Part shown: positions 33,826-49,494 of the stretch, piece by piece
Layout: each line of letters starts with the position of its first letter
Position numbering within the stretch: the first letter of the stretch is position 1
DNA from: a virus
Direction: 5' to 3' (one strand)
DNA: 64,000 nt
Virus record (IMG/VR): IMGVR_UViG_3300049436_000052
Coordinates: 64,001 to 128,000 of that record
The notes under the pieces: model-generated
What the model saw: the letters and a program-made list of their open reading frames with translations, nothing else
Told to the model about the DNA's origin: nothing
Databases searched by the model: none
Program-made: the position numbers and the translations under genes

Positions 33826-33897
33826 TAGTTTTATTAATTTTGTGGATATAAATTTTAAATTTGAATATTTATATATAGATTAAAAATATTTAAAATT

Positions 33898-34392
33898 ATG
33901 AAATTAAAAGAAATTATAAAAATGACAATATCTGAATATTTAAATGAAAATATTAATCGTGATAAATCAAGAAAAGCATTATTTAAAGATGAATATGGTA
34001 AGAATATTGTTTATGATGATGGTAATTATAGAATTGCAGTTGATGATGAAAATGATGCTCGCTATATAACTTTATGGCATAAAGAAATTGTTAAGGGTAA
34101 AGAATATTGGGCTAAACGTGGATATTTAGATGCTTGGGTTAGTAATATGAATTTTAAAAATAGGAATGGAAAATATTTATCTATTCGTTCAATTGAAATA
34201 GAACTAAAACATAGGAATATGGGTTATGGTAGTAAAATGTATAAGGCGTTGTTTGATTTTTCAGCAAACGATATAAATGGAGTTTATTCATTTTTACCAA
34301 ATAGAGTTAATAAAAAACAAGTTCCAAAAATTTATAATAAATTGGGTGCTGTTATTGAAGACGATTATCAATTTATTGAATTTAATAATTAG
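33898..34392 (+). CDS. GNAT-like acetyltransferase with TISEYLNE leader
   Basis: IRSIEIELKHRNMGYGSKMYKAL (GNAT motif A), IYNKLG; TATTTAT at 33866. Confidence 0.65.
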   Translation: MKLKEIIKMTISEYLNENINRDKSRKALFKDEYGKNIVYDDGNYRIAVDDENDARYITLWHKEIVKGKEYWAKRGYLDAWVSNMNFKNRNGKYLSIRSIEIELKHRNMGYGSKMYKALFDFSANDINGVYSFLPNRVNKKQVPKIYNKLGAVIEDDYQFIEFNN

Positions 34393-34419
34393 TGGGTAGA
34401 AAATAAAATAATAAACAAA

Positions 34420-35154
34420 ATGAATAACTTATTTTTTAAAAAAGAATTTGATTATTTTCACAATAAAATTAAAAATAATGAACATTTTAAATATTCACGA
34501 TTTAACGATGGTGAATTAATTGCTATTAGTGGTAATAATCCAAATGGTTCTAATTGTGATGGTCATAAATATTTTCCAGACATGTCAATAGAATTAAAAA
34601 ATATTTTATTGAACTATAAATATTCGGAAAATTATTTATTAGAATCGTTTGATCATTGGTATAATACATCACTAATCACTAAAAATGTTTTAGATAATTT
34701 GAAACAATTAAATCCCGAATTAACGTTTTTACATACAGATTGGATTAGAATATCACATGAACAAGAATCTAGTAAATTTTTTAATTTATTAGATCTGTTA
34801 AAAACAAAGAATTTAGTAATAATTGGAGCAGACTACTTATTAAATTTAAAAAAGTTTTTTAATTTTACGTTTATTGAAATACCATTAAAAAATTGCTATC
34901 TTCAAAAAAATCAAGTGATTGATCAGATTAAAAGGAATAATGAAACATTAAATAATAATTATTATCTATTTTCAGCTTCAATGCCAACAAAAATAATGAT
35001 AGATACATTTAAAGAAGATAATGAGAATACGTATCTTGATTGGGGAAGTGTCTGGGATAGCTTTTTTGTTTCTCCACAATTTAGTTTTATTCGAAAAAGA
35101 TCAACATCAAACAAAGATATTTATAAGCAAATATATAAAAATTATTTAATTTAA
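34420..35154 (+). CDS. GT-D fold (DUF1792-like) glycosyltransferase
   Basis: YSRFNDGEL, LVIIG, IEIPLKNCY, LDWGSVWD. Confidence 0.65.
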   Translation: MNNLFFKKEFDYFHNKIKNNEHFKYSRFNDGELIAISGNNPNGSNCDGHKYFPDMSIELKNILLNYKYSENYLLESFDHWYNTSLITKNVLDNLKQLNPELTFLHTDWIRISHEQESSKFFNLLDLLKTKNLVIIGADYLLNLKKFFNFTFIEIPLKNCYLQKNQVIDQIKRNNETLNNNYYLFSASMPTKIMIDTFKEDNENTYLDWGSVWDSFFVSPQFSFIRKRSTSNKDIYKQIYKNYLI

Positions 35155-35157
35155 TTT

Positions 35158-35949
35158 ATGTCAAACTACAAAAAATATATTGAATATAGCATGGATACTA
35201 ATCCAGATTGGAAATTATTAGAGGATATGTTTTCTAATAATTATGAAAACAATGCACATGCAGATAAAGTAGATATTATACCAAAAAAGATTCATCAGTT
35301 TTGGATTGGTGGAACAAAACTTCCAGATAAATATAAAAGACTTTCTGAAAGTTGGATTAAATGTAATCCAGATTGGGAATATAGATTATGGGTTGATGAT
35401 GATGTTGAAGGTCTAAATATGATTAATAAAACATTGTATGATAAAGCGCATAATGTTGGGATTAAATCAGATATACTAAGATACGAAATTTTATATAAAT
35501 TTGGTGGAATTTCAGCAGATACGGATTTCGAATGTTTAAAGTCATTTAATGATTTAAGATATTTGGATTTATTTGCAGGAAATGGATACTCAACATTTCC
35601 TCATGTTTATTGTGGACTAATTGGAATAAAACCACAACATGAATTAATGTTAAGGATATTGCAAGGTTTGAAAGCTAAAGAAAATATGAATGTTAATGTT
35701 GATTTTGGGGAAATCTTGAAATTGTCAGGGCCTGATTATTTTAGTGATCTATTTTTTAAATATTTACATGAAAACGAGGAGAATAGAAAGAATTGTGTTA
35801 TATTTCCTCAAAAATATTTTTATGCTTTGTCTCCAGGTTTAAGGCATGAATTAAACGGATTAACTAACGATAACATAAATAAAGCACATACATTTATTTG
35901 TGATGTTTCATATGCGTTGCATTATTGGTGTACAAGTTGGCAAAAATAA
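35158..35949 (+). CDS. GT32 (Och1-like DXD) glycosyltransferase
   Basis: IPKKIHQFWIG, SW...NPDWEYRLW, KSDILRYEILYKFGGISADTD. Confidence 0.9.
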   Translation: MSNYKKYIEYSMDTNPDWKLLEDMFSNNYENNAHADKVDIIPKKIHQFWIGGTKLPDKYKRLSESWIKCNPDWEYRLWVDDDVEGLNMINKTLYDKAHNVGIKSDILRYEILYKFGGISADTDFECLKSFNDLRYLDLFAGNGYSTFPHVYCGLIGIKPQHELMLRILQGLKAKENMNVNVDFGEILKLSGPDYFSDLFFKYLHENEENRKNCVIFPQKYFYALSPGLRHELNGLTNDNINKAHTFICDVSYALHYWCTSWQK

Positions 35950-35954
35950 AAAAC

Positions 35955-36794
35955 ATGATCAATTACATTCAAGGAGAGAAATTTTATCAAGTTGCAGATT
36001 TTTTATATTCACCAAATATAAAACCAGAGTTTGATGATTATAATATAATTCAAAATACTTATAATAAAAATAAATTAAGTGGTAATTTAGATATAATTTA
36101 TACTCATACATTATATGTTAAGCATTTGTTTAATGAAATTAAAGATCTAAAACAAAAATTTATAATTGTTACACATAATAGTGATATTAACATAGACAGC
36201 AGTTTTATTATTCCAGATAATGTTATTAAATGGTATGCTCAGAATGTTGATGTAATTAATGATAAGATTGAATCAATTCCAATTGGACATCCAAATAATA
36301 GATGGTTTCCACATATGAGAAAATTAGAAAAATTAAGAAATAAATTAAATGAAATAAAAAAACATAAAAATCTATTATATTTAAATCATACAATAAAAAC
36401 AAATCCTAAAGAAAGAAAAGAACCATATGATCTACTTCAAAATAAATCATGGGTTAGTTTAATATATGGAACAAATGGTGTAGATTATGATAGATATATT
36501 GATGATATATATAATCATAAATTTGTTTTATGTCCAGCAGGAAATGGAATTGATACACATAGATTATGGGAAGTTTTAGATTTAAAATCAATTCCTGTTG
36601 TAAAAAAACATATCAATAATTTATATTATAAAGATTTACCAATTTGTTTTGTTGATAGTTGGAATGATATAACTGAAGAATTTCTTGAAAAAGAATATGA
36701 TAGAATTAATAAAATTGAATGGGATTTAAGCAAATTGAATTTTGATTATTGGAAAAATAAGATAACAAATGTTAACACAAAAAGAATACGTTAA
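35955..36794 (+). CDS. Exostosin/GT47-like glycosyltransferase
   Basis: THNSD, SIPIG, HKFVLCPAGNGIDTHRLWEVL...IPVV; ATG 35955 preferred over TTG 35925. Confidence 0.75.
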   Translation: MINYIQGEKFYQVADFLYSPNIKPEFDDYNIIQNTYNKNKLSGNLDIIYTHTLYVKHLFNEIKDLKQKFIIVTHNSDINIDSSFIIPDNVIKWYAQNVDVINDKIESIPIGHPNNRWFPHMRKLEKLRNKLNEIKKHKNLLYLNHTIKTNPKERKEPYDLLQNKSWVSLIYGTNGVDYDRYIDDIYNHKFVLCPAGNGIDTHRLWEVLDLKSIPVVKKHINNLYYKDLPICFVDSWNDITEEFLEKEYDRINKIEWDLSKLNFDYWKNKITNVNTKRIR

Positions 36795-36957
36795 AGCATT
36801 ACAGATAGTTCAACAATATGAAAAACAATTGAACATATCTGACATTAATTGGCAATATGAACAAATAGTTTGTCCCAATTGTGGTTCTTATGCCATAGAT
36901 TCAATAAATAATAAGCAACATGATTGTTTTGATTGTGGTGAAAGTTGGATAATATAA
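36769..36957 (+). CDS. Small zinc-ribbon protein
   Basis: CPNCGS...CFDCGESW. Confidence 0.55.
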   Translation: MLTQKEYVKALQIVQQYEKQLNISDINWQYEQIVCPNCGSYAIDSINNKQHDCFDCGESWII

Positions 36958-37006
36958 AGATTTTATTTAAATTTTTAGTAATTATTGCTTTAAAATAAAT
37001 TATTAA

Positions 37007-37216
37007 ATGAGAAATGCTGAAGAAATTTATGAAGAAACTAGATCAGAATGTATTAAAGATAATTGTCAATCTTTGAATGTTGTGACTATACTTTCTATTG
37101 AAAAAGCACAAAAAGAAATGTTTTATTATTTATATCAATTAGCAGAAGAAAATGAAAAACTATCTTTGGTTGAATTTTTTGATAAGGTAGAAAAAGAAAT
37201 ATCATTTAAATTATAA
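37007..37216 (+). CDS. Hypothetical protein
   Basis: 69 aa. Confidence 0.5.
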   Translation: MRNAEEIYEETRSECIKDNCQSLNVVTILSIEKAQKEMFYYLYQLAEENEKLSLVEFFDKVEKEISFKL

Positions 37217-37220
37217 TAAT

Positions 37221-37850
37221 ATGGCAAACGGAGTTTATAAAATAACTGAAGAATTTGAAAATAAGGTTGCCGAATATACTGGAGCAAAATATGTTGTTGC
37301 GGTAGATAATCAGAGTAATGCTTTATTTTTGGCTTTATATTATGAAGATATAAAAGGAAAAGAAATCGAAATACCTGCAAGAACATATCCTTCTGTTCCT
37401 TGTGAAATAATTCATGCTGGTGGAAAAGTTAAATTTGTTCCAGTTGAAGGAGAAACGTTAACAGGTGCTTATCAATTAAAACCAACAAAAGTATATGATA
37501 GTGCATTAAGATTTACATCAGATATGTACATTCCAAATACTCATATGTGTGTTTCATTTACAGGCCCTTACAAACACTTGAAACTTTCAAAAGGTGGTGC
37601 AATATTAACAGATGATTATAAAGCCTATCTTTGGTTTAAAAGAGCAAGATTTAGTGGTAGACGTGAAACTTCATACCATGACGATAATTTCGATATGATT
37701 GGATGGAACTACTATATGATGCCTGAAATAGCAACTAGAGGATTATTAATGATGACACAATTCTATAATTTAGATGGAACAAAAAAACATAATGAGGATT
37801 TAACTTTGCCGTATCCTGATTTGTCAAAATTTGATATTTATAAACAATAA
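37221..37850 (+). CDS. Short DegT/DnrJ-family sugar aminotransferase
   Basis: FENKVAEYTGAKYVVAVDN.SNALFLAL, PARTY, DSA, SF...K....GGAILTDD, GWNYYM. Confidence 0.85.
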   Translation: MANGVYKITEEFENKVAEYTGAKYVVAVDNQSNALFLALYYEDIKGKEIEIPARTYPSVPCEIIHAGGKVKFVPVEGETLTGAYQLKPTKVYDSALRFTSDMYIPNTHMCVSFTGPYKHLKLSKGGAILTDDYKAYLWFKRARFSGRRETSYHDDNFDMIGWNYYMMPEIATRGLLMMTQFYNLDGTKKHNEDLTLPYPDLSKFDIYKQ

Positions 37851-37855
37851 TAAAA

Positions 37856-38413
37856 ATGTTTTACAACGAAAGTCAATTATATAGAATGGGTTTTAAATCA
37901 TTAGGTAATAATGTTTTAATATCTGATAAATCATCAATTTATGGAGCAGAAAATATTTCAATTGGAAATAATGTTCGTATTGATGATTTTGCAATTTTAT
38001 CAATAACAGGGGAACTAATTATTGGTGATTATATACATATTGGTTGTTATAGTTCAATAATTGGTAAAGGAAATATTAATATTGATGATTTTGTTGGAAT
38101 TTCTGGTAGAGTTTCTATATATTCAAGTAATGACGATTATACAGGAATAGGAATGCATAATCCAATGATACCTGAAAAATATAGAAGAGTTACTAATGGC
38201 AATATTCATATCATGAAACATTCAATTATTGGATGTGGATGTGTAATATTACCTAATGTTGTTATTGGTGAAGGATGTTCAATAGATTCGTTAAGTTTAG
38301 TTAAAAACGATTGTGAAGAATTTTCATTTTATTCTGGAAATCCTGCAAAAAAAATAAAAAGCAAGTTTAAAAAATTTTTAAAATATGAAGAATTTGTTAG
38401 AAATAATCAATAA
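37856..38413 (+). CDS. Hexapeptide-repeat acyltransferase (VioB-like)
   Basis: GFKSLGNNVLISDKSSIYG..NISIGNNVRIDDF, DDYTG, GNPAKKIK. Confidence 0.85.
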   Translation: MFYNESQLYRMGFKSLGNNVLISDKSSIYGAENISIGNNVRIDDFAILSITGELIIGDYIHIGCYSSIIGKGNINIDDFVGISGRVSIYSSNDDYTGIGMHNPMIPEKYRRVTNGNIHIMKHSIIGCGCVILPNVVIGEGCSIDSLSLVKNDCEEFSFYSGNPAKKIKSKFKKFLKYEEFVRNNQ

Positions 38414-38606
38414 TATTTTAATTGAAAACAATATTCAACCAATAAATGAAATTAACGATGAAACCGATTTAAGAGATGATATTGGTTTTGATAGTTTTAT
38501 GTTGGCTAAATTAACGGTAGATATTGAAGACGAATACGGTGTTGATGTTTTTGAAAATGGTATAATTAGAAAAATTAGAGAAATAAAAAAATATTTGAAT
38601 GAGTGA
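38385..38606 (+). CDS. Acyl carrier protein
   Basis: 73 aa acidic; LRDDIGFDSFMLAKL..IEDEYGV. Confidence 0.9.
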   Translation: MKNLLEIINNILIENNIQPINEINDETDLRDDIGFDSFMLAKLTVDIEDEYGVDVFENGIIRKIREIKKYLNE

Positions 38607-39687
38607 TTTGTTTTTATGTGATAAAAATTATTTATCATATGATGATTTACTTAATTACATTAATGATGAAAATGATTTGGATTTAAGTGTTATTGAAGAA
38701 CATATTTTCAATACGTTAAAAAATATTGTTGATGAAAAATGTGATGATGTAGATGATCTTATTGATAAGATATTAAATTCAAAAAAAACAATTACCTTTA
38801 GCACATCTGGTACAACTGGAAAACTTAAAAAAATTAAACAAAAAGTAAAACATTTAATTCGAAATGTAAAAATCGATAATAACCATAGAAACGATATTTG
38901 GGGATTAACATATAATCCAGAAAAGATTGCCTCATATCATGTGTTGTTTCAAGCAATTTTAAACAAAAACAAAATTATTGTTTTGTGGGATAAGGAAAAA
39001 AAAGTAATTGAAGATAAATTAAAAGAAATTACACACATATCTGCAACTCCAACGTTTTATAGTTTATTGATAAATAATGAAATCGTTTATCCAAACATTA
39101 AACAAATAACTGTTGGTGGAGAAATATCAAATAATATTCTTTTTGAAAAAATAAAAAAAATATTTCCAAATTCTAAATTAACAAACGTATATGCCTCAAC
39201 AGAATGTGGTTCATTATTATCAACACATGGAGAATATTTTAAAATTCCTGAAAAATATATCAATTTAATTAAAATTGATAATTCAGAATTACTAATTCAT
39301 AAATCATTAACTGGTAATTTGAATAAAAAAAAATATGATAACGATTGGTATAGAACTGGTGATATTGTTGAATACATTAATGAAACAGAGTTTAAAATAG
39401 TTAATAGGAAATCTGATATTATTAATGTTGGTGGATTTAAAGTAAATCCAATAAAAATAGAAAATATTGTTAATAAATTTGATTATGTAATATTATCTAA
39501 AGTATATGGAAGAAAAAATTCAATATTGGGAAGTATAGTCTGTATGGATGTTGTGTTAAAATATGAAGTTTCAATAGAAAAAATAAAAAAAGATTTATTA
39601 ATGAAAATAAATAAATATGAATTACCTTTGAAAATTTATATTGTGAATAATATTGAAACGTTAAACAATAAAATAGTTAGAAATTGA
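38599..39687 (+). CDS. AMP-forming acyl-ACP ligase (ANL family, compact)
   Basis: FSTSGTTG.LK, YASTECG, WYRTGD, R.SDIINVGG.KVNP. Confidence 0.88.
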   Translation: MSDLFLCDKNYLSYDDLLNYINDENDLDLSVIEEHIFNTLKNIVDEKCDDVDDLIDKILNSKKTITFSTSGTTGKLKKIKQKVKHLIRNVKIDNNHRNDIWGLTYNPEKIASYHVLFQAILNKNKIIVLWDKEKKVIEDKLKEITHISATPTFYSLLINNEIVYPNIKQITVGGEISNNILFEKIKKIFPNSKLTNVYASTECGSLLSTHGEYFKIPEKYINLIKIDNSELLIHKSLTGNLNKKKYDNDWYRTGDIVEYINETEFKIVNRKSDIINVGGFKVNPIKIENIVNKFDYVILSKVYGRKNSILGSIVCMDVVLKYEVSIEKIKKDLLMKINKYELPLKIYIVNNIETLNNKIVRN

Positions 39688-40409
39688 AAAATTTAATAAT
39701 TACAGGTATATCAAGTGGTCTTGGACTACAAATGTGTAAGAAATTTCTTAGTGAGAATTATTACGTTTATGGAATAAGTAGAACAACAAACATAGAGATT
39801 GAATCTTTGAAAGATATATATGAATCAAATTTTAACCATAAAATATTTGATTTATCAAATACAAAAAACATAAAAAAAGAAGTTATTGATGATTTTTTAT
39901 CAGAAAAAAAAGAGATACATGGATTGATTAATAATGCAGCAATTGCTTATGACGATCTTGTAACCAATATTGATGTTGAAAAATTACATGAGATGTATGA
40001 AATAAATGTGATTTCTCCGATGATTTTAAGTAAGTATGTTATAAGAAATTTTATATTAAATAACGTATCAGGTTCTTTGGTTCATATTTCAAGTATATCT
40101 GTTCACACTGGTTATAAAGGATTGGCAATGTATGCTTCAACAAAAGGTGCAATTGAGGCATTTTCAAAAAATGTTGCCAGAGAATGGGGTAAGTTTGGAA
40201 TAAGATCAAATTGTGTTGTTTCAGGGTTTATGGATACAAAAATGACAAATACTTTAGATCCTACACAAAAAGATAAAATTTATAATAGAACATCATTAAA
40301 AAAACCTACAAACATTGATTCAGTAGTTAATACAGTAGAATTTTTAATTTCAGAAAAATCAAATTCAATTACAGGACAAAATATTTTTGTAGATTCAGGA
40401 ACTATTTAA
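39684..40409 (+). CDS. SDR oxidoreductase (FabG-like)
   Basis: ITGISSGLG, LINNA, YASTK, ITGQNIFVDSG. Confidence 0.92.
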   Translation: MKNLIITGISSGLGLQMCKKFLSENYYVYGISRTTNIEIESLKDIYESNFNHKIFDLSNTKNIKKEVIDDFLSEKKEIHGLINNAAIAYDDLVTNIDVEKLHEMYEINVISPMILSKYVIRNFILNNVSGSLVHISSISVHTGYKGLAMYASTKGAIEAFSKNVAREWGKFGIRSNCVVSGFMDTKMTNTLDPTQKDKIYNRTSLKKPTNIDSVVNTVEFLISEKSNSITGQNIFVDSGTI

Positions 40410-40423
40410 AATAAATATTTGAA

Positions 40424-41047
40424 ATGAAAATATTACCATCAATAGAATCTTTGGAATTAACTAAAAGGATTAGCGATTCAATAAATAATCAAACATTTCA
40501 TCATCATTATCATATATTGTACGATATTGCTAAAGTTTTTGAAAATGAAATTAATTATGTTGAAATTGGTTGTTATGCAGGTGGAAGTGCATGTTTATTG
40601 CTACAAAGACCCAAAACAAATGCAATTTCAATAGATTGTGGGCATCCTATTAGTCAAAGTGTTGTAGTAAATAATGTAAAAAATCTTAATATCTATAATA
40701 ATTGTTATAATTATATTCAGGGTTATTCACAACAATCACATGTAAAAACTGAATTGAAGAATATTTTAAAGAATAATTTAATCGATATTCTTTTTATTGA
40801 TGGTGGTCATAAATATGATGAAGTTATTGATGATTTCAATTTATATAATGAACTAGTTAATCACAATGGTTATATTGTTTTTGATGATTATAATGATGAA
40901 AAATATTGCCCAGAAGTTAAACTTGCTGTTGATGAAATTATAAGTAAGTTAAGTGACTATGAAATTATTGGAACATTTAAAAACGATTTGAAAGCTAGAC
41001 CTGAAGAATTGCTTGAAGGAAATTGCTTTATTATAAAAAAAATATAA
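40424..41047 (+). CDS. Methyltransferase (Methyltransf_24-like)
   Basis: YVEIGCYAGGS, DILFIDGGH.Y, GYIVFDDY. Confidence 0.88.
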   Translation: MKILPSIESLELTKRISDSINNQTFHHHYHILYDIAKVFENEINYVEIGCYAGGSACLLLQRPKTNAISIDCGHPISQSVVVNNVKNLNIYNNCYNYIQGYSQQSHVKTELKNILKNNLIDILFIDGGHKYDEVIDDFNLYNELVNHNGYIVFDDYNDEKYCPEVKLAVDEIISKLSDYEIIGTFKNDLKARPEELLEGNCFIIKKI

Positions 41048-41053
41048 AATAAA

Positions 41054-41236
41054 ATGAAAAAATATTGGTATTCTTTAATATGTTCAATTTTAGGACATGA
41101 TAAATGTTTAAAAGATTGGTATCCATTAGATCCAATTACAAAAATTTGTTGTTTAAGATGTAATAAATTATTAGAAAAATATAAAAATCCTATATATAAT
41201 GAAGCTAGCAATAGTAATACCAACATATCAACGTAA
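41054..41236 (+). CDS. Small Cys/His zinc-ribbon protein (DUF1660-like)
   Basis: LICSILGH...CLRCNK. Confidence 0.5.
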   Translation: MKKYWYSLICSILGHDKCLKDWYPLDPITKICCLRCNKLLEKYKNPIYNEASNSNTNIST

Positions 41237-41903
41237 TGATGGAAAAAGTTTTCAATTCCTTAAGAAATGTTTAACTTCCATAAAAAATCAAACATATAAA
41301 GATTATTGTGTTTATTTGATTGGTGATAAATATGAAGATAATGAAGAATTTGAGTCAATTGCAAATTCAATAATTGATAAAGATAAAATTAAATATATAA
41401 ATTTACCACATGCCGTTGAAAGAAAAAAATATTCTATTAATAGTAAGGAATTGGCTTTTTCTGGAGGGGTTAATAGTACAAATGTTGGAATTTCAATGGC
41501 CTTAGAAAATGGTTTAAATTTAATCTGTCACCTAGATCACGATGATTTCTGGGAAAATAATCATTTATTTGAAATAAATGAAGTTATTAATAGATTCGAT
41601 AATTGTGCATTTATTACAACAACAGCAAAAAGACTGAATACAAATATTGTTGCACCAATTGAAGGTGAAGGGATTCATTATCCATATCCTGGAAGTGTTT
41701 ATCATTCAGCAACTTGTGTTGATTTTAAAAGAATTCCTTTGAGATATAAGGATGTTTTTATGGAAGAAGGGAGATTAATGGCTGCTGATGCCAATCTTTG
41801 GGTAAGAATTACAGAATATATGAAAAAAAATAATTTGATTGGTTATCATACAAATAAAATAACTTGCTATCATACTAATCATCATTACGATATTATAAAA
41901 TAA
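41199..41903 (+). CDS. Glycosyltransferase family 2
   Basis: IVIPTYQR, SIKNQTY, HLDHDD.W, DANLWVRI. Confidence 0.88.
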   Translation: MKLAIVIPTYQRNDGKSFQFLKKCLTSIKNQTYKDYCVYLIGDKYEDNEEFESIANSIIDKDKIKYINLPHAVERKKYSINSKELAFSGGVNSTNVGISMALENGLNLICHLDHDDFWENNHLFEINEVINRFDNCAFITTTAKRLNTNIVAPIEGEGIHYPYPGSVYHSATCVDFKRIPLRYKDVFMEEGRLMAADANLWVRITEYMKKNNLIGYHTNKITCYHTNHHYDIIK

Positions 41904-41911
41904 TAAATAAC

Positions 41912-42520
41912 ATGGCAGAACATTATATTGAAAATTTAATAAAAAACATAGATATTCCACATAACGGATTTTTTATTGAAGCTGGTGCAAATAATGGAAT
42001 TACTCAGAGCTATACCTATGAATTAGAAAAATTGGGTTGGAGAGGATTATTAGTAGAACCATCAATAAAATCGTTTGAAGAATGTTTTAAAAATAGATCA
42101 GTAGATAACGTTTTCTATAATTGTGCATTAGTTGATAATGATAATATTAAAACAATTAAAGGAGATTTCAATGGCTCGTTAATGAGTAGTATTAATGGAC
42201 AAAGATTATCAAAAAATGAATTAGTTGTGGTTGAAGCAAAAACGATAACTAAAATATTGGATGAAAATAATATTAAAGATATTGATTTATTCTCATTGGA
42301 TGTCGAAGGATTTGAATTAACAGTATTAAAAGGATTAGATTTTAGTAAATACAAACCAAAATATTTTGTTATAGAAGTTTATACAAAAGAATTTTATGAG
42401 ATTGTAAATTTATTGCTAAATAATGGTTATATTTTGAAAGATAATTTAACTGGTTACAATCATAAAGATTGGCCACATTGGGACGGACAACACAATGATT
42501 ATTTGTTTCAATTAAAATAA
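41912..42520 (+). CDS. FkbM-family methyltransferase
   Basis: GFFIEAGANNG, GWRGLLVEP, IDLFSLDVEGFELTVLKG. Confidence 0.92.
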   Translation: MAEHYIENLIKNIDIPHNGFFIEAGANNGITQSYTYELEKLGWRGLLVEPSIKSFEECFKNRSVDNVFYNCALVDNDNIKTIKGDFNGSLMSSINGQRLSKNELVVVEAKTITKILDENNIKDIDLFSLDVEGFELTVLKGLDFSKYKPKYFVIEVYTKEFYEIVNLLLNNGYILKDNLTGYNHKDWPHWDGQHNDYLFQLK

Positions 42521-42526
42521 ATTGAC

Positions 42527-43390
42527 ATGGTAACGTTTTTAAGAATTGGTGAATTCGGAAGATTAGGAAATCAATTATTTCAATATGCAATTTTATTGGC
42601 AGTTGCATATTTAAACAAATATGTTGTCAAATTACCCAATTTTAACGATAGAGAATGGCATGGACAAAAATGTTTATTAAATAATTTCAATATTAGTGCT
42701 GGTTATCTAAACAATAGTGATAAAATCGAACATCAATATTTTGAAGATCAGTCAACTTATTTCAAATATAATCCAAATGTTTTTAATATTCCTAAAAACA
42801 GTAATTTACATGGATATTTCCAAAATTATCAATATTATAAACAGTGTGAAGATTTAATAATCGAAGAATTAACACCAAAAAAAGAAATAGTTGAATACAA
42901 TGAAGAAGTTTTTAAAAAAATAAAAGAAAAATACAAAGGTTATGAAATTATTTCACTACATATAAGAAGAGGTGATACAGATTTAAAAATGTATGGAGAA
43001 ACGCCAAGTTTTTTAGATAAAAATTCAAGATATTATATATATTTGACTAACGCAAAAAAACATTTTGAAGGTAGAAAAGTAAAATTTATAATATTTACAG
43101 GTGGAAATAGAATTGATGACAATCCTTCATCTGATTATGTTTGGTGTAAAACTAATTTTACGCAAGAAGAATATATATTTTCAGATCATAACAATACAAC
43201 GATAAATGATTTTACCTTAATGTATTTATGTGATTCACATATATTATCACCAATATCATCATTAAGTTGGTGGGTTGGATTTTTAAATAAAAGAAATATA
43301 AATAAATTAACTATTGCACCAAAAAAATATTATTTTTTAAATAAAGAAATGGATGGTGGCTTTTATCCAGATAATTTTATATTAGTTTAG
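42527..43390 (+). CDS. GT11 alpha-1,2-fucosyltransferase-like
   Basis: GRLGNQLFQYA, GYFQ, LHIRRGD, SSLSWW. Confidence 0.9.
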   Translation: MVTFLRIGEFGRLGNQLFQYAILLAVAYLNKYVVKLPNFNDREWHGQKCLLNNFNISAGYLNNSDKIEHQYFEDQSTYFKYNPNVFNIPKNSNLHGYFQNYQYYKQCEDLIIEELTPKKEIVEYNEEVFKKIKEKYKGYEIISLHIRRGDTDLKMYGETPSFLDKNSRYYIYLTNAKKHFEGRKVKFIIFTGGNRIDDNPSSDYVWCKTNFTQEEYIFSDHNNTTINDFTLMYLCDSHILSPISSLSWWVGFLNKRNINKLTIAPKKYYFLNKEMDGGFYPDNFILV

Positions 43391-43394
43391 TGAA

Positions 43395-44018
43395 ATGAGT
43401 GAATTTAAATTTGAAACAATATTGTGTGAATTGTTTTAGAAATATGGATCTGATAAATGTTCACAAATTTATCATTCATATTCAAAAAAATATTTTGAAT
43501 TGTTAAATAATAATAGATTGAATGCTAAAAATATTATTGAAATTGGAATTGGAACAAACCAATTAATGAAATCAATAGTAGGTGATAGATATGAAGTTGG
43601 AGCAAGTATAAAAGCGTGGAGAGATTTTTTTCCAAATGCAGGAATATTTGGATTGGATATTGAAAAAGATGTTTTATTTGAAGAAGATAGAATAAAATGT
43701 TTTTATAGTGATCAATCTAAATCTAGTGTTTTAGTTGAAACAATAAATGAGATTAGAAAATATAAAAATGATGAAAATTTATTGTTTGATATGATTCTTG
43801 ATGATGGTAGTCATATTCTTGAACATCAAATACTAACATATAAAACATTATTCAACTATTTAAATATAAATGGCATTTACATAATTGAAGATATTCAAAG
43901 AACTAACATAAATAGTATAGTAAAAGCAATAGGAACAGAAGGAAAAGTAATTGAAATTCATCAAGGACTTCCAACATTAAATGGTGATGTTTTCATTACA
44001 ATTAAAAAAGAAAAATAA
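43395..44018 (+). pseudogene. Sugar O-methyltransferase interrupted by in-frame TAG at codon 15
   Basis: MSEFKFETILCELF*KYGSDK...HSY...IIEIGIG, ASIKAWRDFFPNA, DQS, ILDDGSH, GIYIIED. Confidence 0.7.
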
Positions 44019-44019
44019 T

Positions 44020-45423
44020 ATGGTAACAAGAACAGATATTATAAATAAAATAATTACAAAATATGGTTTTAAATCGTATCTTGAAATTGGAGTAAGAGTT
44101 CCATCTGAAAATTTTGATAAAATTAATGTGGAATTTAAAGAAAGTGTTGATCCGAACCCTAAAGGAAATTGTAATTATATTATGACAAGTGATGAATTTT
44201 TCGAAAAACATGTTGGTGATAAAAAATATGATATCGTATTTGTAGACGGATTACATACAGCAGAACAATCATATAAAGATGTTCATAATGTAATGAAACA
44301 TTTAACAGAAGGTGGATTTATTGTGATGCATGATTGTGATCCCCCTAGTGAATTTCATATCAGACCATATGAGGATTATGCAAAAACTGGAGGTCAGTGG
44401 AATGGTGATGTATTTAAAGCATTTATAACTTTGAAAAATGAATTAAAAGATTGGTCTTGTTTTGTTATTGGTGAAGATTGGGGATGTGGTATTTTAACTA
44501 AAAGAAAAATATTAGAAAATAAAGGAATTGGCGTATTACCGAAAAATTTTATATGGAATGATTTTAATGAAAAAAGAAAAGAATATCTTCAATTAACAAA
44601 ATATTATGAATTTACAGAATATTTGGGTTATCCACAATATATCATAACAACCCAAATGACAGAACATTATTATGAAATTTCAAAACCATTGTTTAAGTCA
44701 TTAAAAAATAATTGGAATTATCGTTTTATTATTGGTTTTATTGATTTTGAACCAAAAAATTACGATGGCGAATATTATTTAATGAAAAAATCTGATGTTA
44801 AAACATATCGAACAAATTTTCCTGAAAATAGAATAAACTATGTTTGTCCACAAGCGGGTGAGTTTATAGACTACATTCCTAATATAAGTGATAATACTAT
44901 TGTCATACAAATAGATTCTGATACATTAATGCAAAGATCGTTCACCGAAAATGAATTAAGTGAAATAATACCAAAAGATGATCAAATATTATCAGTATAT
45001 GGCGCAAATCCACCAACAAATCTATATGATGTTGCAAAACATAATCTTTCTTTTAAAGATCCTGATAAATATATTGAATTAAATAAATATCCAGAATTTA
45101 CAGCTAGTATTATTATAGCAAATAAAAAAACCTTTATTAAATTAAGAGATTTTTATATTAATGAATTTGATGAACTAATATCACAATGTCAACATCATGC
45201 TGGAGGTCAGTGGTTGATAAATAAAATTGCATATAGAGAATTTGATGTTAAAATATTAAATTCTAAATTTCAATGTGCCGAATGGTATCGTACTTTTAAT
45301 ACTATTAAAACTGTTGATAAAAAATTACTTTTAGAGGATGAAGTTGTAATATTTAATCATACAAAGTATTTAGATGAACCAGAGTTCAAACAATTTCAAG
45401 AAACGCACATAAAAAGTAAATAA
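44020..45423 (+). CDS. Methyltransferase + GT-A-like fusion
   Basis: YLEIGV, DIVFVDGLH, GGFIVMHD; C-terminal QIDSD, QWLIN, FNH. Confidence 0.75.
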   Translation: MVTRTDIINKIITKYGFKSYLEIGVRVPSENFDKINVEFKESVDPNPKGNCNYIMTSDEFFEKHVGDKKYDIVFVDGLHTAEQSYKDVHNVMKHLTEGGFIVMHDCDPPSEFHIRPYEDYAKTGGQWNGDVFKAFITLKNELKDWSCFVIGEDWGCGILTKRKILENKGIGVLPKNFIWNDFNEKRKEYLQLTKYYEFTEYLGYPQYIITTQMTEHYYEISKPLFKSLKNNWNYRFIIGFIDFEPKNYDGEYYLMKKSDVKTYRTNFPENRINYVCPQAGEFIDYIPNISDNTIVIQIDSDTLMQRSFTENELSEIIPKDDQILSVYGANPPTNLYDVAKHNLSFKDPDKYIELNKYPEFTASIIIANKKTFIKLRDFYINEFDELISQCQHHAGGQWLINKIAYREFDVKILNSKFQCAEWYRTFNTIKTVDKKLLLEDEVVIFNHTKYLDEPEFKQFQETHIKSK

Positions 45424-45455
45424 AAGGAAATTATGATTGAAAACTATTTATAGTT

Positions 45456-45893
45456 ATGGAATTAAAAAGTTTTATATTGAAAACAATATCTGAATATTTG
45501 AATGAGAGTATTAATAAAAACAATGAATTAATAGCATATCATGGAACAACAGATAAAGGATATGGAACACATAGTTATAAATATTATACAACTGACTATG
45601 ATTATGCTAAAGAATATTCTGAAGATAGTGGTAGAGTAGAAAAGGTAAAAATTAATTATAATAATCCATTTATTATAAATGCAAAATATATGGGTTATGG
45701 TGAAATAATTTTAAATGATGAAATTATTGGATTTTATAGAGATTTAAAAAAAGATGCCGTTGAAAAATTAAAAAACGCTGGTTATGATATAATAATTGTA
45801 AACTATCCAGAAAAAAATAAAAATGGTTTTGAAATAATTCCTTTTGATAAAGAACAAGTAATAGTTTTAGATAGAAATTATATAAAGTTATGA
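45456..45893 (+). CDS. ADP-ribosyltransferase-fold protein with TISEYLNE leader
   Basis: AYHGT, YYTTD.DYAKEY, NNPF, GYD.II, EIIPFDKEQV; TATTTAT at 45445. Confidence 0.6.
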   Translation: MELKSFILKTISEYLNESINKNNELIAYHGTTDKGYGTHSYKYYTTDYDYAKEYSEDSGRVEKVKINYNNPFIINAKYMGYGEIILNDEIIGFYRDLKKDAVEKLKNAGYDIIIVNYPEKNKNGFEIIPFDKEQVIVLDRNYIKL

Positions 45894-47450: not shown

Positions 47451-47900
47451 ATGATTTTAAACAATTCACATAATAGTAAAAAAAGATTATTTGAAGTTTT
47501 TCAAAAAGTAAATGGTGTTAAAATAAATGAAACCATTCTTCCAAAAGAAAAAAAAGAAGAACTTTTAAACGAACTTGTTATATATGTTGCAGAAAAATTG
47601 GGTTTAAACGAACTTCCAAAGATAAATTTATCTTATGAAGAAAATAAAGCATCTGAAAATAAATCATTTGGTGGGTATAATCCAACACACAAATCTATTT
47701 TATTGATAATGACCAATAGAAACTTAGCAGATGCTGGCAGAACATTGGCTCATGAATTAAAACATTATGAACAAGATTTAAAAGGTTTATTGAATAACGA
47801 ATCTGGTATAACTGGAAGTGAAGAAGAAAATGAAGCAAATACGTTTGCAGGAATAATAATGAGAGAATTTGGGAAGTTGTATCCTGAAATTTTCGAATAA
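47451..47900 (+). CDS. Zincin-like metallopeptidase with KINE leader
   Basis: SFGGY, RTLAHELKHYEQ, ENEAN..AG. Confidence 0.75.
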   Translation: MILNNSHNSKKRLFEVFQKVNGVKINETILPKEKKEELLNELVIYVAEKLGLNELPKINLSYEENKASENKSFGGYNPTHKSILLIMTNRNLADAGRTLAHELKHYEQDLKGLLNNESGITGSEEENEANTFAGIIMREFGKLYPEIFE

Positions 47901-48354: not shown

Positions 48355-49494
48355 ATGAAAGTATATACTCCAATAGGAAGCAAAGAAAGATTAGTCGAAA
48401 TGTTTCAAAACGTTAATAAAATAAAAATTAATGAAATGTTTGATCAGAGCAATATATTAATTCAATCTTTTGAAAAACTAAAAAACAATCAAATTGACAC
48501 AAGTAACGTTAAAACACAAGTAGAAGGAAATAATACTTTTGTTGAAATTGATGGTGTTGATGAAAATCAAAACAATCTTTTGTTCGTTTTTGAAACAATT
48601 GCTGAAGAATCGGATCAAGATAATGTTTTAGAAATCAAAGAAGTAAAATTAAATCAATTTGTTTTAAAATCAAACAATGATGAACTTATTATTGAAATGG
48701 ATGAAAACGAATTAGCTAGTTTTAATTCACAACATGCAGAAGAATTGATTGATTTAATAAAAGAATATGTTGATGTTGAATCTGATATTGAAAATCAAAT
48801 GTATGAAGAAGTTATAAAAAAAATTGATAGCTATCCATTTGGCGGAGGATCTGAAAGATTTCAAACAGGAAAACAATATGCAGATGAAAAACCAACAAAT
48901 CCTGAACTTAGAGTTAAAAGTGACGAATTAGATAAGTTTGTTGATGAAACAATAGAAGATATTAACGATGTCCAAGTTGGTGATATATATGTTGAAAATT
49001 CCAGCAACATTCCTTATGAAATTGAAAATATTGATTTAAATATAAATAAGGCAAGTATAATAAATAAAAAAAGTGGTGATAAATATCAAGTTTCTATAAA
49101 ATATTTAATAAATAACTTTAATAAAGTCGAAGAACCAGAATTTAGTGTTGATGAAAATCAAACAGAAGTAGAACCAGATATTGAACAAATTGAAAAGGAA
49201 AGAGAAGAAAATGGTGATATGATTCAAGGTGGTTTGGGTGATGATAAATCTCCAGAAGATTTTGATCCAGAACAAATAAGTATGGGTATTAAAGTGGAAA
49301 TGGAACACACAAACGATCCACGAATTGCATTAGATATAACGATCGACCATCTTTCTGAAAATCCCCTCTATTATTCATATTTAGACAAAATGGAAAAAGA
49401 AATGAATAACGATGAAGAAAATAATCCAGATGAAGATTTAGAAGATGAATTACTTGGATTTAAACCGCTAAATGTTGGTGATAATATGAATTAA
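48355..49494 (+). CDS. Acidic protein with KINE leader and DUF5661-like domain
   Basis: GGLGD, QISMGIKVEMEHT.D...A..I..DHL.ENP.YYS.L. Confidence 0.7.
   Translation: MKVYTPIGSKERLVEMFQNVNKIKINEMFDQSNILIQSFEKLKNNQIDTSNVKTQVEGNNTFVEIDGVDENQNNLLFVFETIAEESDQDNVLEIKEVKLNQFVLKSNNDELIIEMDENELASFNSQHAEELIDLIKEYVDVESDIENQMYEEVIKKIDSYPFGGGSERFQTGKQYADEKPTNPELRVKSDELDKFVDETIEDINDVQVGDIYVENSSNIPYEIENIDLNINKASIINKKSGDKYQVSIKYLINNFNKVEEPEFSVDENQTEVEPDIEQIEKEREENGDMIQGGLGDDKSPEDFDPEQISMGIKVEMEHTNDPRIALDITIDHLSENPLYYSYLDKMEKEMNNDEENNPDEDLEDELLGFKPLNVGDNMN

Follow-up and report, generated by a model that had tools for sequence, protein, structure and literature searches.

Why would two otherwise unrelated enzymes of one virus start with the same short run of amino acids? 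This question is raised by a 64,000-nucleotide stretch of viral DNA (the window), which comprises bases 64001-128000 of IMG/VR record IMGVR_UViG_3300049436_000052, a record of 334,326 bp and 25% GC that is rated complete. Two open reading frames (ORFs) in the window, ORF A and ORF B, begin with a 17-codon leader and continue into different proteins. A first-pass annotation proposed that a late promoter and this leader form a portable unit, which recruits arbitrary enzymes for packaging into the phage head and injection. Upon re-reading of the sequence, the start positions and TISEYLNE N-termini given for the two genes were exactly as claimed. On the sequence comparisons described here, a leader-plus-promoter cassette on interchangeable cargo is real and widespread in a T4-like lineage. 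We favor, with modest confidence, the explanation that the leader is a T4-type capsid-targeting sequence, which is removed by the prohead protease and marks packaged, injected effectors. The two genes and their leaders, with leader scores from a position-specific scoring matrix (PSSM), are as follows.

33898..34392, + strand: ORF A, 164 amino acids; the cargo is a predicted GNAT-fold acetyltransferase.
33898..33948, + strand: leader of ORF A, 17 codons, MKLKEIIKMTISEYLNE, ending L-N-E; PSSM score 17.7 bits.
45456..45893, + strand: ORF B, 145 amino acids; the cargo is a predicted ADP-ribosyltransferase (ART) of the ART-PolyVal family.
45456..45506, + strand: leader of ORF B, 17 codons, MELKSFILKTISEYLNE, ending L-N-E; PSSM score 23.0 bits.

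Both leaders end in TISEYLNE. The 17 identical nucleotides that had been noted in the two genes are the 17-mer ACAATATCTGAATATTT, which was found exactly twice in the whole genome (window positions 33925-33941 and 45483-45499). The leaders that went into the PSSM all came from homologues in other samples. After ORF A and ORF B, the next-best N-terminus scored 9.0 bits, and the top of 82,408 internal windows scored 11.9 bits. Because of this gap between the two genes and all other windows, we conclude that the genome holds exactly two copies of the leader. A third candidate, MEENKVTISLSEYLKD (genome position 280089, - strand), was at chance level by PSSM and was rejected. At leader position 12 the two copies also agree in a Ser and in its surrounding bases, which were seen in none of 32 homologues. 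Gene conversion may have kept the two copies alike, or both may have adapted jointly to a single partner.

Past the leader, the two proteins are unrelated, and the divergence into GNAT-like and ART-like domains was confirmed by Pfam and Foldseek. ORF A matched PF00583 with an E-value of 0.004 and 17.8 bits, which is under the 20.7-bit cut-off, and it also matched the acetyltransferase family phrog_21214. The Foldseek matches included the GNAT toxins KacT and AtaT and the N-terminal acetyltransferase Naa50 (E ~1e-4). All 22 sequences (ORF A and 21 homologues) have R106 and G109, which lie inside an R-x-x-G-x-G motif that reads HRNMGYG, with G111, in ORF A itself. The predicted fold together with the acetyl-CoA motif R/Q-x-x-G-x-G/A therefore points to a GNAT cargo. 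ORF B matched PF18760 (ART-PolyVal) with an E-value of 1.6e-6 and 29.4 bits, against a cut-off of 31.2 bits. This family is carried by 11 ORF B homologues, with H29, Y41 and E126 invariant, and the top Foldseek matches were the catalytic domains of tankyrase and PARP. The family match and the conserved His/Tyr/Glu of the diphtheria/PARP-like clade identify ORF B as a predicted ART-PolyVal enzyme. Its assignment to the T4 Alt/VIP2 clade was rejected, since BLASTP against Alt gave an E-value of 0.098 and the conserved residues are His/Tyr/Glu rather than R-S-E. The first-pass annotation had named a leader integral to each enzyme fold as an outcome that would count against it. AlphaFold instead modeled a detached helix of low confidence that stands apart from a well-defined domain in both proteins: residues 3-19 in ORF A (pLDDT 59-66; core above 90) and residues 2-18 in ORF B (pLDDT 44-47).

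The scan of the genome and its relatives with a leader profile, suggested by the same annotation, uncovered many unrelated C-terminal families. Homologues of ORF A and ORF B were sought through their catalytic parts. In most homologues of both enzymes the leader reads M..(K/R)KFIxTTIxE(Y/F)LNE, and a few are without one. The aliphatic-x-Glu end was retained in most of the 21 ORF A homologues and in diverged leaders that were found by cargo homology. IMG/VR was scanned with a degenerate DNA pattern and then with a stricter 13-residue pattern, and the counts were pooled; the leader consensus there is M(E/K)LRKFIATTIREYLNE. The strict pattern gave 76 loci in full. Of the pooled motif matches, 95 of 99 were N-terminal, and these represent 83 distinct proteins. 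The 77 cargos of 40 residues or more fell into at least 42 unrelated BLAST clusters, and a reversed-pattern control gave zero matches in the relatives. By sequence, this is a short N-terminal leader on otherwise unrelated proteins. The cargo is not arbitrary as had been supposed, since ART-PolyVal and GNAT domains recur: among 68 complete leader proteins, Pfam found 10 ART-PolyVal proteins and ~6-8 GNATs from several lineages. One each had a Zn-ribbon, a DpnI-C-like helix-turn-helix and an Nmad2 domain, and the remainder were without a Pfam family. Complete or large relatives carry 2-4 strict copies each, often adjacent, and one fragment has a tandem array of four leader ORFs inside 4 kb.

At one relative's locus (L027, - strand), an ORF of ~375 amino acids has a perfect leader-like IATTINEYLNE ~204 residues into the protein instead of at the N-terminus, which may reflect the fusion of two cassettes or mark a protease site within the protein.

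Conservation extends upstream of the start codon. About 60 bases are conserved along with the leader, in the order TTTTGTGGGTGG, AAATTTGAATATTTATATATAGAAT, AAACTATTTATTATT, ATG, and the part that travels with the leader is made up of a promoter-like TATTTATATATA and an untranslated region (UTR). From 53 cassettes on other viral contigs we built an nhmmer profile, which matched the genome twice only. At ORF A the match was to the full cassette (genome 97836-97950, window 33836-33950, model 12-125, E 1.3e-10). At ORF B it was to the proximal UTR and leader (genome 109441-109507 only, model 58-124, E 5.9e-6).

33836..33897, + strand: upstream cassette of ORF A, block TTTTGTGG..AAATTTGAATATTTATATATAGA..AAATATTTAAAATT, with the core TATTTATA at 33866-33873.
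45441..45455, + strand: proximal UTR element before ORF B, AAAACTATTTATAGTT.

The core TATTTATA is probably a late promoter because of its orientation bias, its spacing and the genes downstream of it. Within 60 nt upstream of gene starts, it was found 56 times in the same-strand orientation vs 9 times in the opposite one, usually 12-25 nt before the ATG. The genes behind it include the large terminase, the portal and a scaffold-like gene ahead of the capsid gene. Its genome-wide form is (A/T)GTATTTATA(A/T)AAAA, with examples in the window at 33866, 37836, 46535 and 49586. The first-pass annotation gave each of the two genes its own TATTTAT, and the motif is indeed present at both, but the copies are not equivalent. 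Between the end of TATTTATA and the ATG there are 24 nt in ORF A, a normal promoter distance in this genome, but just 3 nt in ORF B, whose copy is the counterpart of the cassette's UTR element. For this reason, ORF B is probably read from further upstream; the preceding gene stops 32 nt before it. Since ORF B is without the distal promoter block, the proposal of a late promoter common to both genes does not hold as it was made. The idea of a portable leader with an upstream part is upheld by the 83 proteins in at least 42 clusters.

In many relatives, a conserved non-coding block reaches ~190 nt upstream of the leader cassettes (for example L097:858-1027 on the - strand, L104:742-911 on the + strand, four copies in L038, and ~20 other loci). 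In some of these blocks there is a long hairpin (-36 to -41 kcal/mol), and its arms pair although their sequences differ. Rfam gave no match in three cassette-rich loci. By analogy, the block may be a terminator or a recombination element like PeSL. This raises another explanation, in which selection acts on the DNA or RNA of the unit, a mobile, PeSL-like regulatory cassette, and the peptide is a by-product. The 60-190 upstream bases are conserved as strongly as the leader, the hairpin of some copies covaries, and PeSL-like elements flank T-even internal-protein loci (PMC2839356). However, the codons of fixed leader residues vary synonymously (Arg is AGA, CGT or CGA; Leu is TTG, TTA, CTG, CTT or CTA; Thr uses all four codons). 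Because synonymous sites vary while the residues stay fixed, selection appears to act on the leader peptide. Diverged leaders also retain the aliphatic-x-Glu end though the remainder changes, and ORF B retains its leader without the promoter block. We therefore regard the by-product explanation as very improbable; it accounts for the movement of the unit, not for the retention of the peptide, and it is compatible with capsid targeting.

Two proteins expected of a T4-type targeting system are encoded in the genome: a major capsid protein of the gp23 type (PF07068, E 8.5e-63) and a prohead protease of family S77 (PF03420). The protease has DHP and GISSRG catalytic motifs, and its catalytic His and Ser motifs align with those of T4 gp21. 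The nearest capsid proteins are those of uncultured huge phages (34% identity), Rhodothermus phage RM378 and Flavobacterium phage immuto. A capsid of the nucleocytoplasmic large DNA viruses was not found in the genome, in a search that had no positive control. Because of the gp23-type capsid protein, the S77 protease and the nearest capsid relatives, we place the phage as a deep-branching T4-like jumbo phage. The protease was found in 3 of 3 complete leader-bearing genomes and in 13 of the 23 records searched (22 contigs of at least 109 kb and the 29-kb fragment G004); the records without it are fragments that are 16-74% complete. The leader pattern was absent from phages immuto and RM378. A single match to the pattern in LR756508 was not leader-like and was rejected. 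Prokaryotes were scanned with one genome for each species, and the leader occurred there only on short contigs, in 16 stretches of metagenome-assembled genomes (L202-L217). These contigs were binned to unrelated taxa: Methanolobus, Bacillota, Mollicutes, Gammaproteobacteria, Bacteroidales and Flavobacteriaceae. They are probably phage DNA mis-binned by low GC, and no host was assigned from them.

The S77 protease gene of this genome (29026-30813, + strand, outside the window; locus L006:160-1947) is split by an intein of ~350 residues. The intein matches Intein_splicing (E 2.2e-10), has a LAGLIDADG-like part and sits just ahead of the catalytic His. The protease genes of relatives G001 and G002 are intein-free (230 and 247 amino acids), and four other relatives have frames of 600-676 amino acids. 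One example of an intein-free protease gene is L200:1399-2091. The large terminase (1153 amino acids, genome 11417-14878, + strand) and the portal (1173 amino acids, genome 18212-21733, + strand), also outside the window, are about twice the usual length, and each matches its own family over part of the protein only. Due to the partial family match and doubled length, further inteins or insertions are possible in both.

The N-terminus of the capsid protein has ...SY(M/L)INE, then a variable stretch, ~18 residues before a conserved PVIRRV block, and this arrangement is kept in three phages. The Glu of (M/L)INE is residue 60, and its counterpart in T4 gp23 is Glu65 (...FLTE followed by AEIGG). 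Both leaders thus end in the same aliphatic-x-Glu motif as the capsid propeptide boundary, a comparison that covers the presence of the motif as read from the sequence. In the T4 record, IPII and IPIII start with MKTYQEFIAE followed by A, IPI starts with MKTFKEFTSTTTPVSTITE followed by A, and Alt starts with MELITE. The pattern T-x-x-E-aromatic-aliphatic-x-E is common to MKTYQEFIAE and TTIREYLNE, peptides that are too short for statistics.

By analogy with T4, we infer docking, cleavage, packaging and injection of the two enzymes, and host targets for them, as follows. The tagged enzymes would be made late in infection, and the leader helix would dock them on the scaffolding core as the prohead assembles. 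The S77 protease would then cut after the final Glu of L-N-E, as at the (M/L)INE boundary of the capsid protein. The mature GNAT and ART would remain in the head, enter the host with the DNA and modify host targets early. Recombination would place the leader with its promoter/UTR cassette ahead of different genes. This sequence of events is favored by a second leader family in the genome, described at the end of this text, which has (L/I)NE as its own last residues. The recurrence of ART-PolyVal and GNAT cargo is also consistent with it, since these domains adjoin each other in polyvalent proteins that are predicted to be delivered by virions (PMC5512222), and many phage ARTs sit in head-packaging contexts (PMC9503650). 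A predicted complex between the intein-free protease of a relative and leader residues 1-36 had a score of 0.00 and carries no weight either way.

Another possible explanation is that the leader is a docking or recognition peptide for a partner outside the capsid. Such a partner could be a modifying enzyme or a chaperone or inhibitor that silences a toxic ART or GNAT; the leader could also be an oligomerization helix or a helix that localizes the protein to a membrane or compartment. A conserved, detached helix on unrelated cargo would suit any common binding partner, and the nearest GNAT folds, KacT, AtaT and TacT, are toxins held by antitoxin peptides. This explanation leaves unaccounted for the conserved aliphatic-x-Glu end, its match to the capsid boundary and the S77 protease in all complete genomes. 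In addition, no candidate partner gene accompanies the cassette in the arrays examined. For a modifying enzyme of the radical-SAM type in particular, no gene was found in the genome, in a search whose control matched in 14 of 14 genomes. We therefore think a partner outside the capsid unlikely.

Several observations weigh against capsid targeting as well. This genome has just two leader copies, and ORF B is without its own promoter at the normal distance. The hydrophobic moment of the leaders, 0.34-0.38, is unremarkable compared to the genome's 95th percentile of 0.48, and they are only moderately amphipathic. (L/I)NE near N-termini is not enriched genome-wide (ratio 1.31, p 0.14). Since the motif is common in an AT-rich proteome and shows no N-terminal enrichment, it is weak evidence by itself in a genome of 25% GC. 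The likeness to the T4 leaders is too short for a statistical test, and cultured phages gave no tblastn match to ORF B or to the leader by itself. Finally, ORF A lies inside a cluster of glycan genes, where a GNAT could have a metabolic role.

The neighboring genes confirm the earlier statement that one gene is within a glycan cluster and the other at its end. The cluster is one of sugar modification, with GT2, Gly_transf_sug, DegT, Hexapep, AMP-binding, SDR, FkbM, GT11 and Methyltransf_24 domains; ORF A is inside it and ORF B comes immediately after it. ORF A could thus be an acetyltransferase of the surrounding pathway, with its leader a relic of the cassette that delivered it, and its position between glycosyltransferases on the same strand fits this. 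The cluster already has a hexapeptide acyltransferase, however, and most of the 21 homologues keep the aliphatic-x-Glu end of the leader. The gene for the ORF A orthologue P0007 comes second in an array of two leader genes, and no sugar genes are close to it. Because of this orthologue, the position of ORF A within the cluster is an insertion and not a conserved context, and we give a role in the sugar pathway little credence.

The T4 capsid targeting sequence and the variable T-even internal-protein loci are reportedly the subject of Mullaney and Black 1996 and Repoila et al. 1994, works that later papers describe (PMC3012670, PMC12373910, PMC2839356). According to the literature, T-even internal proteins have only the leader in common, and this leader directs their packaging into the scaffolding core. 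The principle is therefore already known from the T-even internal-protein loci, and what is new here is the leader cassette of this lineage. As in T4 IPI, IPII and IPIII, a short N-terminal leader with an aliphatic-x-Glu end is the sole common part of unrelated proteins. As in the T-even loci, variable genes stand behind conserved regulatory sequences in a phage that has gp21-type and gp23-type genes. The systems also differ. The T4 leader has 10 residues rather than 17 and no demonstrable homology to the one described here. The T4 cargos are small restriction inhibitors, whereas the known cargos here are enzymes (ART and GNAT). The leader genes here are scattered as well as arrayed, as with ORF A in the glycan cluster. 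The late promoter of T4 is TATAAATA, compared to the promoter-like TATTTATA here, and in contrast to the T4 internal proteins, the tagged proteins are known from sequence alone.

Three other systems are close. If capsid targeting is correct, ORF B would resemble T4 Alt in being an ART that is loaded into a T4-type head via a cleaved N-terminal propeptide and acts at entry. Alt has 682 amino acids and belongs to the R-S-E Alt/VIP2 clade (PMC5512222), whereas ORF B is a predicted ART-PolyVal protein of 145 amino acids with His/Tyr/Glu. The polyvalent proteins that phages and conjugative elements encode (Iyer et al. 2017, PMC5512222) also have GNAT and polyvalent-type ART domains, whose delivery along with the DNA is a prediction. 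They are single multidomain polypeptides fused to a virion domain, unlike the separate small proteins with their own leaders seen here. The PeSL cassettes of T4-type phages (PMC2839356, PMC4122927) likewise have a conserved promoter-plus-hairpin block beside variable genes and probably mediate shuffling. The cassette described here is unrelated to them in sequence, is probably late rather than early, and extends into the coding region as the leader.

A broader proposal, which we offer tentatively, is that one mobile cassette of up to ~250 bases in an uncultured lineage of T4-like giant phages makes any gene behind it a capsid-packaged, injected effector. In this equally tentative scheme, the cassette would consist of the hairpin, the conserved non-coding block, the late promoter, the UTR and the 17-codon address tag. 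Gene conversion would seem to homogenize the leaders inside a single genome, as the Ser at leader position 12 and the 17 identical nucleotides are peculiar to the two copies of this phage. If the tag is a capsid address, the injected effectors of uncultured giant phages could be listed from sequence alone. This would yield a catalog of more than 40 candidate early-acting families that modify the host or counter its defenses, most without a known domain. The principle of the T4 internal proteins, with one leader, interchangeable cargo and a mobile regulatory flank, would be old and widespread beyond the enterobacterial T-evens. The tag could also be used as a tool to load foreign proteins into such capsids.

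A second leader family, M..KKRLFE(V/I)M.K(V/L)(D/N)...(L/I)NE, was seen on six ORFs of the genome with unrelated remainders and has the same (L/I)NE end.

Window 47451-47900, + strand: ORF with the second leader.
Window 48355-49494, + strand: ORF with the second leader.
Genome 6583: ORF with the second leader.
Genome 52779: ORF with the second leader.
Genome 208141, - strand: ORF with the second leader.
Genome 329575, - strand: ORF with the second leader.

One of the six is weakly M78-peptidase-like and another has a DUF5661 domain. Three N-terminal copies of this leader were also found in other viral contigs (L191, L197 and L198).

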